Positions 10,839 to 17,568 of a DNA stretch of 42,542 bases are shown here, piece after piece. Below the pieces are notes generated by a model. That model did no database searches. It was not told the origin of the DNA and saw only the letters and a program-made list of their open reading frames with translations. The position numbers and the translations under genes were made by a program. Numbering within the stretch: the first letter of the stretch is position 1; each line of letters starts with the position of its first letter. Origin of the DNA: Candidatus Aerophobota bacterium (GTDB lineage Bacteria; Aerophobota; Aerophobia; Aerophobales; JAGGXI01); contig JAYEHT010000207.1 in assembly GCA_034659655.1 (NCBI GenBank), positions 1 to 42,542 of the forward strand. The letters are read 5' to 3'.

Positions 10839-11501
10839 CTAAAGTTTTTTCTTGCAGAAGTACCAGTCTTTACATTCATACCCTTCTTTTAGCCGTTGCT
10901 CTGCCATCTCCTGGGTTTTGGGCGGAGGCACGATAACTGCTTCACCCGGCTTCCAGTTAGCAGGGGTAGCCACCTTATGCTTGTCTGTTGTCTGGAGAGC
11001 GTCAATGAGACGGAGAATCTCTTGCATATTGCGACCAGTAGTAAGTGGATAGTAAATCATAGCCCGCAAAATTCCTTCCGGGTCAATGACGAAGACACAT
11101 CTTGCCGTCTCTGTTTTGCTCTCTCCCGGATGGATCATACCATAGAGAGTAGCCACTTTCTTGTCTAAATCCGCAATAACAGGGAAGGGTATTTTAACTC
11201 CCATTTTTTCTTCAATGTTTCTCACCCAGGCGATATGTGAGGACACACTATCTACACTAAGACCCAAAAGCTCCACTCCCCGCCTCTTTAATTCAGGATG
11301 AATTTCGGCAAAGCCCATAAATTCTGTAGTGCAAACCGGGGTAAAATCAGCTGGATGAGAAAATAAAATTAGCCAACCTCCTTTAAAGTCTTCCAGGCGC
11401 ACTACTCCCTGTGTAGTTGTAGCTTCAAAGGTTGGAGCTGGTTCTCCAAGCCTTGGCATAGACACAGCCTCTTTTATTTCAGTAATTATTTTTTCTTCCA
11501 T
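10839..11501 (-). CDS. Peroxiredoxin (1-Cys / Prx6-like)
   Basis: 220 aa with the peroxidatic motif FTPVCTTE and the length and blocks of Prx6-type enzymes. Confidence 0.9.
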   Translation of the reverse strand: MEEKIITEIKEAVSMPRLGEPAPTFEATTTQGVVRLEDFKGGWLILFSHPADFTPVCTTEFMGFAEIHPELKRRGVELLGLSVDSVSSHIAWVRNIEEKMGVKIPFPVIADLDKKVATLYGMIHPGESKTETARCVFVIDPEGILRAMIYYPLTTGRNMQEILRLIDALQTTDKHKVATPANWKPGEAVIVPPPKTQEMAEQRLKEGYECKDWYFCKKKL

Positions 11502-11564
11502 TTTTTTCTCCTCTCTTTATTATTCTCTTAATTTCTTTTCATTAAAGTCTCTTTATTTTTTCAG

Positions 11565-11948
11565 TTATAGGAGCCTTTTCTCACCCTTAATCTTTTTTAT
11601 TTCTGTGATATCTTGTGTAGCTTCCAGACATCCGAGATAGCTTCCTTCTTTATCCCGTACAGCAAAATACCGGATATAAATCAGACGTTCTTTATTTTTT
11701 ATCCAAAATTCTGCTGTATCTCTACGAGCTTTTTTGAAATCGTCCAGAATTTGATTAACAACGTGGAGGCTCTTACCTGGATGACATTGCTGAACTTTGC
11801 GACCGATTACAGCGCGAGTTCGGGGGAAAATTCGCCTCCCCTCTTTATTGAAATATCTGACCGTATCCTCCTTATTTACAAAGGAAATCTCTACGGGTAT
11901 AGTATCTAAAATTGCCTCAAGCTCCTCTTTGCTAAGATTTTCAATCAT
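11565..11948 (-). CDS. Stand-alone PAS-fold protein of the type found at the C terminus of DUF438/hemerythrin proteins
   Basis: 127 aa. The blocks VRYFNKEGRRIFPRTRAVIGRKVQQCHPGKS...FWI...IRYFAVRD..G.YLG.LE..QDIT match my memory of that PAS subfamily. Confidence 0.55.
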   Translation of the reverse strand: MIENLSKEELEAILDTIPVEISFVNKEDTVRYFNKEGRRIFPRTRAVIGRKVQQCHPGKSLHVVNQILDDFKKARRDTAEFWIKNKERLIYIRYFAVRDKEGSYLGCLEATQDITEIKKIKGEKRLL

Positions 11949-11951
11949 TTT

Positions 11952-12641
11952 TCATTCCTCCTTTTCAAATTCTTCCTTACTTGCGCCGCAGATAGGGCAT
12001 ACCCAGTCATCGGGTAGCTCTTTAAAAGGTGTGCCCGGTTTTATTCCGCTATCCGGATCTCCCTTTTCAGGGTCGTAGACATATCCACAAACAGCGCATC
12101 TATATTTATCCATATCCTCACCTCTCTTTTTAGGTTCTTCTTTTATATAAGTAGGTGCAGCTTTAGGAGCCTTACCCCGTTTCACCTCATGATAATAGGC
12201 ATAAGTCATAGGAATTCCTTCTTTGATGTTTTCTGCCTCCACCACTTTTCCTATAAAGATAGTGTGAGTTCCCACATCTATCTTTTTAATTACCTCAGCC
12301 TCCAGATAAGCTAAAGTGTTGTCCAGAACTAAAGGAGCTCCTGTTTCACCGATTTTATAATTTACAGCGGTGAATTTATCTATTTCTCTACCCGATTTGA
12401 AACCAAAGTGACCAATAAATTTCAAGGGGGTATTTTCCGAGAGAATAGAGGCAGCAAAAACACGACTTTCCTCAATAAATTGGTGAGTGAAATTCTCTTT
12501 GTTGATGCTCACAGCAACGGTAGGGGGTTCGGATGTAACTTGAAAGAGAGTGTTGGCAATCTGTCCATTTAACTTATCCTTTTTTCTTGAGCTAATTACA
12601 TATAAACCATAACTTATCCTGTATAAAGCCTTAAGGTCCAT
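11952..12641 (-). CDS. Flavin-reductase-like domain fused to a C-terminal rubredoxin (high-molecular-weight rubredoxin type)
   Basis: An N-terminal FMN-binding flavin reductase fold, then CAVCGY...CPICG, a rubredoxin with the DDWVCP motif. The SD GAGGAGG lies upstream. Confidence 0.85.
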
Positions 12642-12903
12642 CTATAGCCTCCTCGTATAATATGTTTAATTTAGCATATAAGTTTTAAGCAATTTTTATG
12701 CCAACTCGTAGCTGCCAAAAATAAACTATTTGGAGATACTCTAAATGGTTTATCCATGAGAATTTGTAGATTTTTCTGACAAAAAAAGAGCTCATCTAAA
12801 TGGACATTTTTTGTGCCTATATTGTGCAAAACTGTCTCTTTCCTTCTTCTTTATCTATGTTCGCCACTTAAAAGCGATTTTCAGGATAATTTAAGGCTAA
12901 CGG

Positions 12904-13154
12904 TGGTAGCTTGTTTCAGAGTAATAACTGTAATGCTTTATAGAAAAGTATCTTATGGATACAGTTGCTGGTATTTGAAAAATAGGGAATGTGAGACGGA
13001 GCAAAATTAATTGCTCACAGTGCCAACTTAAAAATTTTGTCCTTTTATTGGTGCAGCTTTCTGGAATCAACTGGCAAACACAGGATAGAATATTCTGGAT
13101 CGGGTGGATATTTCCGGGTTAGCAGTTTATTTTTCTTGAAAGTCTATTTTTGTT
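12904..13154. repeat. Left arm of a 251-bp inverted repeat
   Basis: It is the reverse complement of 14586-14836. I aligned every base (pairing rule l + r = 27740) and found 12 mismatches and no indels. Confidence 0.95.
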
Positions 13155-13155
13155 G

Positions 13156-13184
13156 ATTATAGTCTATTTTTCTAATTATGTCAA
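13156..13184 (-). promoter_or_regulatory. Perfect consensus sigma70-type promoter reading into the left IR arm
   Basis: The minus strand reads TTGACA (13184-13179), a 17-nt spacer, then TATAAT (13161-13156). Checked base by base. Confidence 0.55.
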
Positions 13185-13387
13185 ATAACTCCTTCTCCAG
13201 TTTTCCGGAAACTGGAGCTTTACCATCTACCCAAAAATCAAGCTCAAAAGCATCTTCAATAAGAGGGTGAAGGCTCCATCCAATAAGGCCGGCAAGGGTG
13301 TGAGAGGCAATTAGTGAGATAATCTTATCTTCCAGACTTTTCTTTGTCCTTTTTCTGCCTCTCTTTGTGGACAAAAAAGAAGGGATA

Positions 13388-14077
13388 GAACCAGGAATAA
13401 TTCTTGTAATCCAAACAGCTGGAAGATCTTTGAATTTCAATCTTCATCTTCTCATTACCGAAGGAGGGTTAGGTAAAGATAATAGATGGTATAGTCTCTC
13501 TTATATAGACCAGCATCTTTTAGGGGAAAAATGGTAGTATCTTCTTCTTACAAGATTAAGAGAGTATCTGCCCAAAAATGAAAGAACAAAAAGATTAATA
13601 GATAAGCTGTTCAAAGAAAAACGCATGTTTATCACTTATGCCAAAAAGGAGAGGAAAAGAAAGGTAGACATTGTAGGCTATCTTATAAAATATGTAATCT
13701 CTCCCCCGATCTCTTATCGAAAGATTATAGATTACAAAAATGGGGAGGTTACCTTTCGCTACCAGACCCGAGAGGGGACTAAGAATAAGATAAAAAAGCT
13801 GGATGCTTTAGGTTTTATCTATTTTTTAGTTCAGCACATCCCGGAGACGAACCAGAAGATGATTCACTACTATGGGCTTTATACAGGAGCAAAATCAAAG
13901 AGAATGAAGAAGGTAGTAGAAGAGTTCATAAGGTCTTTCAATCAACAGGGATGGGAAGAGGAACAGGAAAGACTCTTATCAGAGATTCTATCCTTTCCCA
14001 CTACTTATAGGGAGAGGATGAAGATGAGCTATAATAAAGATCCCTATCTCTGCCTGTTTGTGGAAATGAGATGGTAA
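13388..14077 (+). pseudogene. IS91-family (rolling-circle, Y2-type) transposase remnant: C-terminal two-thirds only, with an in-frame TAG
   Basis: One frame reads EPGIILVIQTAGRSLNFNLHLLITEGGLGKDNRWY...GEKW*YLLLTRL...YLIKYVISPPISYRKII..GEVTFRY...FIYFLVQHIP...IHYYGLY. This is the IS91/IS801 transposase pattern (degenerate HUH block, then the Y-motif region). There is a TAG at 13535-13537, no N-terminal zinc-finger part, and the usual C-terminal CxxC is degraded (LCLFVEMRW*). Confidence 0.7.
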
Positions 14078-14391
14078 TAGAGAGGATAGTTGGCCCTTAT
14101 GGTTATGTTATCTTTGATATTTGGAAAACAGATTATTTCCAGAATATTCCTGATGAGGAGGAGAAGAATACTAAATCTCTTCAAAAAGAAGAAAAAGGAC
14201 AAAAAGAGGAGTCTTCAAGATTTCACTAGCTTCTATTGCCCTCACTGCAAAAATAAGCAAGCTATTCCTAATAAAGTGGTTTATGTTTTACTCAAGGAAA
14301 ACATTCTCATTCTGGAGGAACAACTGCTTTTATTTATACTAAATGTGGTAGCCCTATGAAACCCATGAAGAAAGAAGATGTTTAAAAAGCC

Positions 14392-14412
14392 CTCCTCGCC
14401 AAAGGCGAGGAG
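14392..14412 (-). terminator. GC-rich hairpin followed by a T-run on the minus strand
   Basis: CTCCTCGCC-AAA-GGCGAGGAG forms a 9-bp stem. On the minus strand it is followed by GGCTTTTT. It could equally be an IS91-type end hairpin. Confidence 0.35.
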
Positions 14413-14418
14413 CTGTGC

Positions 14419-14447
14419 TTGACAAATTCATAAAGCTGTGCAATAAT
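14419..14447 (+). promoter_or_regulatory. Candidate sigma70-type promoter with extended -10, facing the right IR arm and the envelope locus
   Basis: TTGACA (14419-14424), a 17-nt spacer whose last bases are TGC, then AATAAT (14442-14447). Confidence 0.35.
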
Positions 14448-14585
14448 TTTCTTAGATTGTTTCATTTTATCCTCTCTTCTTCTCTTATTATTTTCTTCTG
14501 AGAAGGGAGGATAGTAATTCTTTTCTTCATTGACGAGGAGCATTAATTACCAGACACAATATTTATTATACTACCATCTGGGATT

Positions 14586-14836
14586 AACAAAAATAGACTT
14601 TCAAGAAAAATAAACTGCTAACCCGGAAATATTCACCCGATCCAGAATATTCTATTCTGTGTTTGCCAGTTGATTCCAGAAAGCTGCACCAATAAAAAGA
14701 CAAAATTTTTAATTTGGCACTGTGAGCAATTAATTTTGCTCCATTTCACATTACCTATTTTTCAAAGACCAGCAACTGTATCCATAATATACTTTTTTAA
14801 AAAGCATTACAATTATTACTCTGAAACAAGCTACCA
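14586..14836. repeat. Right arm of the 251-bp inverted repeat
   Basis: It is the reverse complement of 12904-13154, with 12 mismatches and no indels. Confidence 0.95.
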
Positions 14837-15132
14837 TTGTTTGTAGAGTTTACGCAGAAATGATTCTTAAATTAGCTCATAGTATAGTAAAACCGATAAT
14901 AAAATAGGGGTAATTATAGAAAGAACAACATCGAAAGATTCAGCTAAAGTAGAACACCTTCTATAATTATGTCTGCTTGTTACTTATAGAAGATGAAATA
15001 AAGCAAAAATAAGCTCAGAAGAAAGCGAGGTGATAAGTAGAGACATTAGCTGATGAATAAAGGGTAAATAAAAGAAAGTTTAACAATTCGTAAGTCTCAT
15101 GAGGATGATAAATAAAAATAGATCGTGAATAT

Positions 15133-17568
15133 TTGGAAGGGGGCTGGACAACGAAGAGAAAGTGCATCGTAATAATCTTACTCAGCTTATTTATTGTATG
15201 TTTACTTGCTCTTTCCGGTGCAGCATACCTTTATAGGAAGGAGAAAACCGGTACAGAAATTTTTGCTGTGGGTCTTTATGAATATGAACTCAAGAATGTT
15301 TATCGTGTCTTGGGCAATGAGGAAGAGTTAGCATTGGGAGAAGAAGGTTTAGCTCAAGGCTGGTCCGGTGAGGAAAGTCTTCGGCTATACCTGGATGGAT
15401 CTGTCCGTTATCGTCGGCGAATCACTCTCAGTTATGATTCAACCGAAGAGGAGGAGACTGAGCGACTGTGGGCAAAACTTGCCCGGGGAGCCAGCTACCT
15501 TTTTTACGGGAAATACCAACTCTCTTTTCCCGATAATAAATTTATTGGGGAAAACAAGAGTCTTTATGGCCCTGAACTTCATCTTGAGGGGAAAAGGAAT
15601 TTGTTTACCGGAAGTTTTACTGAGGTGAAAGGACTCTTTGCCCGGGATGAGATACCAGCGGATGGCAGCTCCACTTATTTCGTAAAGCTCGCCCCGATGG
15701 TGGTAGGGAGCGAAATAATATGGATTGAGGCAAGAGACCCTATTTCGGAAGTCGTTGTTTCTAAAACTCATATGGAGCGAGATATAGACTATACCATCGA
15801 TTACGATACCGGAGAGATTATCTTTACTGAAGCCATCCCTTCCGTTACTCCAGAGGGAAATATTAACTACATCGTGGCTGACTATCAGTATCTTCCCGAA
15901 GCTCCCGGTTACAGAAGATATCTGGTTGGTTTACGCAATACCTATAAAATATCGGATAGGTTAAGCCTGGGAGCAGGTTATCTTACCCAATACGATGATA
16001 GAGGCTCTTCCACTCCAGAGTTAGCTGGTAGGAACCCTTCTCAGAATTCGGCTTGGAGCGTGGGTATCCAATACAAACTTGGCGAGGAGCTGGTTTTAAG
16101 TACCGAATACGGAAAGAGTCAACAAGACGAAGATATCTTAACCAAGGGGAATGAGGAGGAAAGATCTGCCTATAGAGGTGAATTAAAGGGAAAACTCACT
16201 AATCGTTCGGAGGTTCTTTTAGGCTATGAAAGGATTAATCCTGAATTTTTCTCTCTCAACCCCGAGGTAGAGGATGACCTTGAAAAATATGAGCTTTCTC
16301 TCTCTCATCAACTGACTGATAAACTAAAACTTAAGGGAGGCTATGAATACTCCCACGATAATATTTTAGAGGAGGAAGAGCCAACCACTACTGAAAAAAC
16401 CTCTGATTTGAGTCTTACCTATGAATTAGGTAAATACAAGTATCTCGGTCGAGTGGAATTTGAGGGTCTCTATCGTTTTAAAGACGAGGAAAACGACTGG
16501 TATCCCCGAGAGGGCAGCCAGTCAAAAATTTCTTCTCTAAAACTTGGTATGGAGCCTTCGGAGGTTTTTAGCTCCTTCGTTAAATACGAACATGAGGATA
16601 TATACGGTAAGCCAGAGCTACAAATTACCTCTAAAAAAGATACCTCCGCCTTCGGCCTGGAATATAGTCCCACTGAGAAACGTTCTCTCACTACTCAAAT
16701 TCAGTTCATAGATGAGCGAGATCTCTTAACAGGAGAAAAGCCCTATACTAAAAAGTTTCTTTTCCAGGGGGAAAGGGATCTTACAAGATCGCTGGATGTA
16801 TCCCTTAACTATGAACATTCAGATACGGAAGAGGGGAAAAGGTTTACTAAAGAAAGTGATGTCACCTCGGCAAAACTGAAATATACTCCTTCCGAGCAAC
16901 TCATCTTTTCCTTAGGAGAGGAGACTTCGAGGACTGTGAATCGCAGTGCTGATCCTATTAGCACTGAAAAAAGGAAGAAAGACACTGCTGGTATTGAATA
17001 CGCTCTTACTAACTATTTTCTCCTCTATGCAGAATACGAAAAAGAAGAAGAGAAAACTTTAAACCCCCAGAGTTCCAAACTCAGCGAACGATTAGTAGCG
17101 AGACTTCCTTATGAGCCTTCCCATAGATTTTCTCTAACCCCAGGATACGAATACGAGGAGACTCGGGAGACTTTAGCCCAGGAGAGTCTGGAAAGAGAAA
17201 ATATTCCCTCTTTAAAGATGGACTGGTTTCTCACAGAAAAATGGGAGCTCTTTACCAATGTGGAGCTAAAAACGGTAAAGAGTATCCTTCCTCCTCCAAA
17301 GGTTAAGGCGGTTACTGCCACTGGATTGGGAAGAATAACTTATAAGATCTTGGATCGGTGGGACCTTATGGGTCAGTATGAAGAAACTAACCAGATAGAG
17401 CCCCAAAAAAGTAATAAGCAAATCACTGCCTTTGAACTGGGCTATGAAATCACCGATAATATAAGGATTGGTCTGGGACATAGAAGTATTAAATTTACAG
17501 ATGAAGCTATTCCTGAGAATGATTATCAAGCCGACATGGCTTACCTTCGGCTAACGGGCAAGATTTAA
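15133..17568 (+). CDS. Putative outer-membrane beta-barrel protein of unknown family (N-terminal membrane anchor, ~230-aa soluble region, long beta-strand-rich region)
   Basis: 811-aa uninterrupted ORF. The hydrophobic segment is CIVIILLSLFIVCLLALSGAAYL. From about residue 260 onwards there are runs of alternating hydrophobic residues with recurrent GYEY/YEYE/LSLTYEL strand-turn patterns. The start is a TTG with no clear SD, so the 5' end is uncertain. Confidence 0.5.
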   Translation: MEGGWTTKRKCIVIILLSLFIVCLLALSGAAYLYRKEKTGTEIFAVGLYEYELKNVYRVLGNEEELALGEEGLAQGWSGEESLRLYLDGSVRYRRRITLSYDSTEEEETERLWAKLARGASYLFYGKYQLSFPDNKFIGENKSLYGPELHLEGKRNLFTGSFTEVKGLFARDEIPADGSSTYFVKLAPMVVGSEIIWIEARDPISEVVVSKTHMERDIDYTIDYDTGEIIFTEAIPSVTPEGNINYIVADYQYLPEAPGYRRYLVGLRNTYKISDRLSLGAGYLTQYDDRGSSTPELAGRNPSQNSAWSVGIQYKLGEELVLSTEYGKSQQDEDILTKGNEEERSAYRGELKGKLTNRSEVLLGYERINPEFFSLNPEVEDDLEKYELSLSHQLTDKLKLKGGYEYSHDNILEEEEPTTTEKTSDLSLTYELGKYKYLGRVEFEGLYRFKDEENDWYPREGSQSKISSLKLGMEPSEVFSSFVKYEHEDIYGKPELQITSKKDTSAFGLEYSPTEKRSLTTQIQFIDERDLLTGEKPYTKKFLFQGERDLTRSLDVSLNYEHSDTEEGKRFTKESDVTSAKLKYTPSEQLIFSLGEETSRTVNRSADPISTEKRKKDTAGIEYALTNYFLLYAEYEKEEEKTLNPQSSKLSERLVARLPYEPSHRFSLTPGYEYEETRETLAQESLERENIPSLKMDWFLTEKWELFTNVELKTVKSILPPPKVKAVTATGLGRITYKILDRWDLMGQYEETNQIEPQKSNKQITAFELGYEITDNIRIGLGHRSIKFTDEAIPENDYQADMAYLRLTGKI

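Follow-up and report, generated by a model that had tools for sequence, protein, structure and literature searches.

This report concerns an inverted-repeat cassette in a 42,542-nucleotide stretch of DNA (the window; contig JAYEHT010000207.1 of assembly GCA_034659655.1) from a Candidatus Aerophobetes metagenome-assembled genome (MAG) of 1.99 Mb, which comprises 315 contigs and is 85.7% complete. Two arms, arm L (12899-13157, + strand) and arm R (14583-14841, - strand), bracket an interior at 13158-14582, and the cassette lies between an oxygen-defence gene block and an envelope locus, a placement given by a first-pass annotation of the window and matched by gene content in Pfam searches. The cassette is probably a scar left by repeated insertions, deletions and rearrangements that involved mobile elements, at an intergenic site prone to recombination, with no dedicated device in it, and ordinary rearrangement debris is the most likely description of it. 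Each arm carries an inward-facing terminus of an IS1634-family insertion sequence (IS), the interior holds decayed transposase-gene fragments, a related species carries one arm alone, and the arms stand at the boundary of a genomic island.

The arms are 259 nt long and differ at 15 positions with no insertions or deletions (base-by-base comparison). A repeat search returned them as 94% complementary with a spacing of 1425 nt, which is far beyond chance, and gave no other long inverted repeat in 12000-16000, where the other five pairs were 23-30 nt long at 73-76%. The slightly shorter repeat described earlier (12904-13154 and 14586-14836) was recounted with the same result, 251 positions with 12 mismatches. 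A search for copy number and context had been proposed as a check; it found only two arm copies, exactly, in the window's genome and no arm match in plasmid and phage collections, and context was supplied by partial matches in relatives. Assembly support was assessed with Logan contigs from four runs of one brine-metagenome study, and the MAG's source may be among these runs. In each of runs X1 and X2, contigs cover all four arm junctions in the reference arrangement, a single contig from run X3 (14508-14884) crosses all of arm R, and the junction-covering contigs differ from the reference at 0-2 positions. The inverted repeat is not an assembly artefact.

Each arm is composed of three units, A (~120-134 nt), B (70 nt) and C (69 nt), which occupy 12885/12899-13018, 13019-13088 and 13089-13157 in arm L; in arm R they run as C' (14583-14651), B' (14652-14721) and A' (14722-14841). 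Unit B is the right terminus of an IS1634-family element. An nhmmer profile built from 11 IS 3' ends, including the transposase tail (399 positions, drawn from 27 common-type copies), matched 13018-13088 (E=1.8e-11, profile positions 330-399 of 399) and 14653-14722 (E=1.2e-10) and had no match in the rest of the window, units A and C included. Between the arms, B is 95.7% and C 98.5% identical. The terminus pattern was recovered at 29 loci, nine of them species-genome loci (seven Candidatus Aerophobetes MAGs) and 20 metagenome-contig loci; 27 belong to a common subfamily and two are arm-like, and block B forms the last 70 nt of the element in 27 of the 29. Matches to the block in genomes G003 and G006 lie directly 3' of the C-terminus of a DDE transposase, which NCBIfam places in the IS1634 family (NF033559, 110 bits against a cut-off of 100). 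The transposase coding frame ends ~85 nt before the element end, as read by eye on the alignment, and the open reading frame (ORF) listed in locus L033 stops ~135 nt before block B.

Terminus copies from different contexts diverge directly past ...GGCAAACAYGGGNTAG, so the IS ends at 13088 in arm L (+ strand) and at 14652 in arm R (- strand), and the two ends point into the cassette and face each other. Because both point inward, the interior could not be mobilised by these two termini. Unit C appears to be DNA outside the IS terminus, and since it is nonetheless duplicated, arm R would be a segmental copy and not a product of transposition. The arms were also considered as the 3' coding tail of an IS1634-type transposase, a reading that was rejected since the profile spans the tail and only B matches; a tblastn search with 161 ORFs from the IS loci placed nothing on the arms (best E=0.031).

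The order of the two arms was read from two metagenome contigs of a related species, L086 and L089, which are 99.98% alike. Both align colinearly, at 86-92% identity, with window 11313-13184, which runs over the peroxiredoxin and flavin reductase-rubredoxin genes, the upstream region, one arm and 27 bp beyond. Arm L with both of its flanks (12783-13184) is 92% identical to this single copy, and the homology in L089 ends exactly at the -35 hexamer of a sigma-70-type promoter to the right of arm L, past which L089 has different DNA that includes a binding-protein gene of an ATP-binding cassette (ABC) transporter. No second arm was found within 2.5 kb of the first in either contig. When L089 was used to polarise the arm differences, 4 changes were private to arm L, 10 to arm R and 15 to L089, with one three-way difference; of the 15 sites that distinguish the arms, 10 are thus derived in R and 4 in L, and midpoint rooting on branch lengths of 4, 10 and 15 groups L with R. 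Because arm L has the same surroundings in the related species but no partner there, arm R appears to be a later inverted copy of arm L, or of a near-identical stretch, made after the species split. An L089 ORF beside the arm copy (2760-2984) was considered as a transposase fragment and dropped, as it matched no family.

The arms were rejected as coding DNA, since all six frames are interrupted and an outward ORF of 57/58 codons with a TTG start is lost in L089. The outward-reading strands hold no ATG (0 counted), as the first-pass annotation had stated, and have 2 GTG and 4 TTG per arm; the ORF at 12813-13010 is cut by a stop in the arm-R copy, which had also been seen before. The + strand ORF over the arm is retained in L089 with 6 residue differences, and 12885-13010 shows ~8 base differences from L089 (counted by hand on alignments). 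A weak three-base periodicity of the arm mismatches (9 of 15) led nowhere.

Within the interior, two transposase-gene fragments were identified. The first, an internal fragment at 13216-13371 (- strand), encodes 52 residues that correspond to positions 399-450 of a 574-aa IS1634-family protein and is 71% identical at the amino-acid level and 84% at the DNA level to the transposase on contig C231 of the same genome, which itself scores 261 bits on NF033559 (cut-off 100). This 52-codon piece belongs to a different subfamily and lies on the opposite strand from the terminus in the arms, and it is all that was found when an intact DDE transposase was sought between the two inverted ends. The second, at 13373-14423 (+ strand), is an IS91-family pseudo-transposase (Y2_Tnp, Pfam PF04986) with its 3' flank. 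It resembles the rolling-circle elements of that family in its 74% DNA identity over 1057 bp to L026, an intact element of IS91 type from a different Aerophobetes genome; the homology runs past a terminator-like hairpin followed by a T run (14392-14412, - strand) to 14423. It differs from them in lacking 144 N-terminal residues relative to the 436-aa protein of L026 (tblastn) and in being interrupted by a TAG (13535-13537) and by a shift of frame at ~14054-14056, and its NCBIfam IS91 score (73 bits) is below the cut-off of 125 because the remnant is a fragment. Judged by these lesions, the interior transposase genes are dead. The hairpin in the IS91 flank corresponds to a sub-threshold Rfam 'U7' match at 14385-14449.

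IS91-family elements have no long terminal repeats, and the earlier statement that the remnant does not explain the arms stands: L026 has no arm-like DNA over ~1-1.5 kb beside the gene and shares only 13376-14423 with the window, and on this ground the arms were rejected as part of an IS91-type element. In another Aerophobetes MAG (L066, ~255-361) an IS1634-type right end abuts an IS91-type transposase coding region homologous to window 13949-14018; nested insertion of IS1634- and IS91-type elements into one another therefore recurs.

The cassette resembles an IS1634-family IS (IS4-related DDE transposons, NF033559) in that unit B is homologous to the 70-nt right end and a second gene fragment of IS1634 type lies in the interior, and it departs from one in that the arms carry no transposase, only one type of end is present and the ends face inward. 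For the IS1634 family, PMC2266710 gives target duplications of 5-6 bp, which are long and variable in IS1634 and IS1549; compared with that account, neither a 5-6-bp nor a long direct target duplication is present here. Flank comparison found no direct target-site duplication around the arms, in agreement with the first-pass annotation, and none around unit B.

The arms start 55-70 bp inside the left edge of a 25.4-kb island (12831-38248) that is absent at the syntenic site of a same-genus genome (G001). Contig C99 of that genome is colinear with the window to ~12777-12830 and then resumes at window 38249, the 3' end of a formiminotransferase gene; in G001 that gene directly adjoins the leader of the flavin reductase. 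To the right of this leader, the window, G001 and the L089 species each have different DNA, and the interval is therefore prone to rearrangement. In addition to the inverted-repeat cassette, the island holds genes that Pfam searches assign to a barrel-like protein, DUF11 giants that include a 4322-aa protein, DUF1573 and a hybrid histidine kinase. The barrel protein has matches in 3 of 31 genomes of the order, counting the window's own, with a best identity of 31%; it was not found in G001 with the window query, and no close relative was found in the other 30 genomes. Delivery of arm R by the donor of the island was checked, and no arm-like DNA was found beside the distant homologues of the barrel protein. 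A remnant of unit A was sought in G001 and yielded one weak local alignment that was equalled by 9 of 300 shuffles.

On the favoured explanation, a local intergenic stretch of ~260 bp would already have held a dead solo IS1634-family end (B) and its 69-bp flank (C), arm L would be the old resident copy, and arm R would be a later inverted copy made in this lineage, while the 1.4-kb interior would be a graveyard in which fragments of two further transposase genes lie, one of IS1634 type and the other of IS91 type. Arm R may have been made by inverted segmental duplication, either by template switching or in the repair of an IS-associated break, an event that may be linked to the island's arrival or rearrangement. 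Staggered-break inversion was considered as an origin and rejected, as arm L retains its ancestral neighbours on both sides.

Several observations weigh against this explanation. The mechanism of the inverted duplication is a part that we infer, and the staggered-break model does not fit. The explanation does not cover the origin of unit A, which has partial relatives at 76-81% identity in three other families of the order. Arm L is 92.3% identical to L089 (97.1% in B) compared with 79.8% for the adjacent intergenic DNA; it differs from L089 at 20 of 259 sites, and B at 2 of 70, and the third codon positions of the neighbour gene differ at 33 of 230, above the arm L rate. Constraint or a recent exchange may lie behind this low divergence of arm L. 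Two of the five sigma-70 sites in the window that score at least 11/12 lie in the cassette, both reading outward through the arms, and the left one is conserved in L089. The contig evidence comes from one study, and a minority flipped form could escape contigs.

The alternative that survives best, although it is unlikely, takes the arms for terminal inverted repeats left by a mobile element, non-autonomous or composite, that used to move as one unit and has since decayed, such as a foldback cassette or a pair of miniature inverted-repeat transposable elements (MITEs). MITE pairs and 'integron mobilization units' are IS-end-derived repeats of a few hundred bp that lie inverted around unrelated DNA, and a repeat of this type ends in inverted repeats, is accompanied by target duplications and can be mobilised in trans. 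The cassette is like them in that inverted, IS-end-derived repeats bracket unrelated DNA, and the IS-terminus sequence in the arms favours such an origin, as do the fragments of unit A found in unrelated contexts in other genomes of the order. At E=1e-4 the arm is matched by 4 of 31 genomes of the order, of which one is the window's own and the other three (G014, G010 and G003, from three other families) give partial matches only, at 76-81% identity; those in G014 and G010 are the ones in unrelated contexts. A weak match at 12855-12874 that resembles the left inverted repeat (IRL-like; profile search, E=1.8) and a third A-like variant in contigs of the same study, a loose end at 12939, point the same way. 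Against this origin, target duplications were sought and not found, and the search for terminal inverted repeats within one unit gave only the weak IRL-like match, the ends of a single arm being non-complementary in sequence; only two copies of the arm exist in the genome; in the related species arm L is fixed on its own, with no arm R; and the IS ends are turned the wrong way for a transposase that uses them to carry the interior along. A composite transposon does not fit, since its termini (13088 and 14652) would be directed inward, both IS bodies are missing and no duplication lies outside.

Two observations concern unit A itself. Contigs from runs X1 and X3 match 12886-12939 with 4 differences and then continue in different but A-like sequence, so that another population or locus holds a third variant of unit A. 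In G014 (L003 1169-1324 and 1-1046), the A-like fragment adjoins an ORF fragment with a YADD motif and a frame-broken gene, which by eye are group II intron reverse transcriptase-like and IS110-type transposase-like, respectively, and L003 looks like another IS graveyard.

Inversion of the interior, which the first-pass annotation had raised as a consequence of the arm length, would make the cassette an invertible promoter module: homologous recombination between the arms would flip 13158-14582 and swap a perfect and a weaker sigma-70 promoter between two recipients, the oxygen-defence operon and the surface-protein island. The left promoter (TTGACA-17-TATAAT, 12/12; 13156-13184, - strand) reads outward through arm L and is also 12/12 in L089, with a spacer of 16 nt; the right promoter (TTGACA-17-AATAAT with a TG extension, 11/12; 14419-14447, + strand) reads outward through arm R. 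The pair compares with ~0.24 such sites expected in 2 kb, given 235 sites of at least 11/12, 54 of them perfect, in the 1.99 Mb of the genome, and arms of 259 bp are long enough for RecA-type recombination. Invertons of the fimS or Bacteroides type have short repeats, a dedicated site-specific recombinase nearby and both orientations in reads. The cassette is like them in that inverted repeats bracket a segment with outward promoters between two operons, and unlike them in that no short repeats, recombinase or second orientation were found here. No flipped orientation or inverted joint was found in the contigs of the four runs, although contigs can drop rare variants, and Pfam scans of the 35 window ORFs revealed no recombinase gene, only the two dead transposase remnants. 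Nothing points to homogenisation of the arms, since the private changes are unequal (10 against 4) and the arms have diverged by 5.8%, and the one-arm relative cannot invert.

The left operon, moreover, has a promoter of its own. A sigma-54-type element (TGGCATAAAAATTGCT; 12688-12703, - strand), which fits the sigma-54 -24/-12 consensus, is interposed between arm L and position 12641, where the flavin reductase-rubredoxin gene starts, and is the sole zero-mismatch match of its type in the window. The identical 16-mer lies upstream of the orthologous gene in G001 (L019 6854-6869) and in L089 (2186-2201), and the left operon therefore needs no promoter beyond arm L. An invertible module is accordingly judged improbable.

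A shared 5' leader, or a cis-regulatory RNA or DNA element that both divergent units would receive from the arms read outward, was the other function proposed by the first-pass annotation, and its chances are likewise slight. In its favour, strong sigma-70-like promoters lie upstream of both arms and read outward through them; no terminator was predicted between the left promoter and the gene, and arm L is better conserved than the adjacent non-coding DNA. For the left operon the leader is weakened by the conserved sigma-54-type promoter, which is located downstream of arm L, between it and the gene, and the left sigma-70 promoter was not copied with arm R. A conserved RNA element found no support either: Rfam gave 0 hits at gathering score, and its seven sub-threshold hits (E up to 5) all lie outside the arms; arm folding energies are no better than those of shuffles (z=-0.12 and -0.46); and compensatory changes were found at 0 of 52 and 0 of 90 predicted pairs, in a comparison of only three sequences and hence of low power.

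A combined reading, in which the cassette would be a recombination-swappable dual-promoter module whose flipping trades a perfect and a weaker sigma-70 promoter between a sigma-54-controlled oxygen-defence operon and a 21-kb surface-fibre island, with arm conservation reflecting selection on a domesticated IS terminus as a cis element, is very improbable. A chimeric fold-back in the MAG contig, which the fragmentation of the genome might invite, has a negligible chance, because the arm copies differ at 15 sites and the junctions recur in contigs of separate runs.

The perfect sigma-70 sites (TTGACA-(16-18)-TATAAT) recorded across the genome seem far above the roughly estimated one per such genome that would be expected by chance, which points to the use of canonical sigma-70 promoters in this lineage of Aerophobetes. 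A repeated TTGTGC/TTGTAC motif at 12811-12830, ~110-130 bp upstream of the sigma-54-type site, is a possible activator site. Contig C79 of G001 has three stretches of similar leader DNA, beside response-regulator genes, one of which is NtrC-like by eye. The G001 leader has ~220 bp of extra DNA (L019 6609-6829) from the sigma-54-type site to the start codon region, and the L089 leader has ~110 extra aligned-gap positions in the same region; a small repeat may have been inserted there. The window encodes a 127-aa PAS_10 protein (11565-11948) between its peroxiredoxin and flavin reductase genes, and the same spot holds a 394-aa ORF, flavodiiron-like by eye, in G001 (L019 4671-5855) and in L089 (237-1421).

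The interpretation offered by the first-pass annotation is thus partly supported, and the IS1634-family terminus in the arms, the IS1634-type fragment in the interior and the edge of the 25.4-kb island had escaped it. The 259-bp repeat is better described as an IS end and its flank around dead transposase genes, and annotation as a switch or an RNA element would be unwarranted without read or transcript evidence. For the family, the comparison defines a conserved right end for an IS1634-family element that recurs across Candidatus Aerophobetes MAGs. For the organism, it points out an intergenic site at which three related genomes have each undergone a different rearrangement, and it fixes the left boundary of the island with its giant surface-protein genes.

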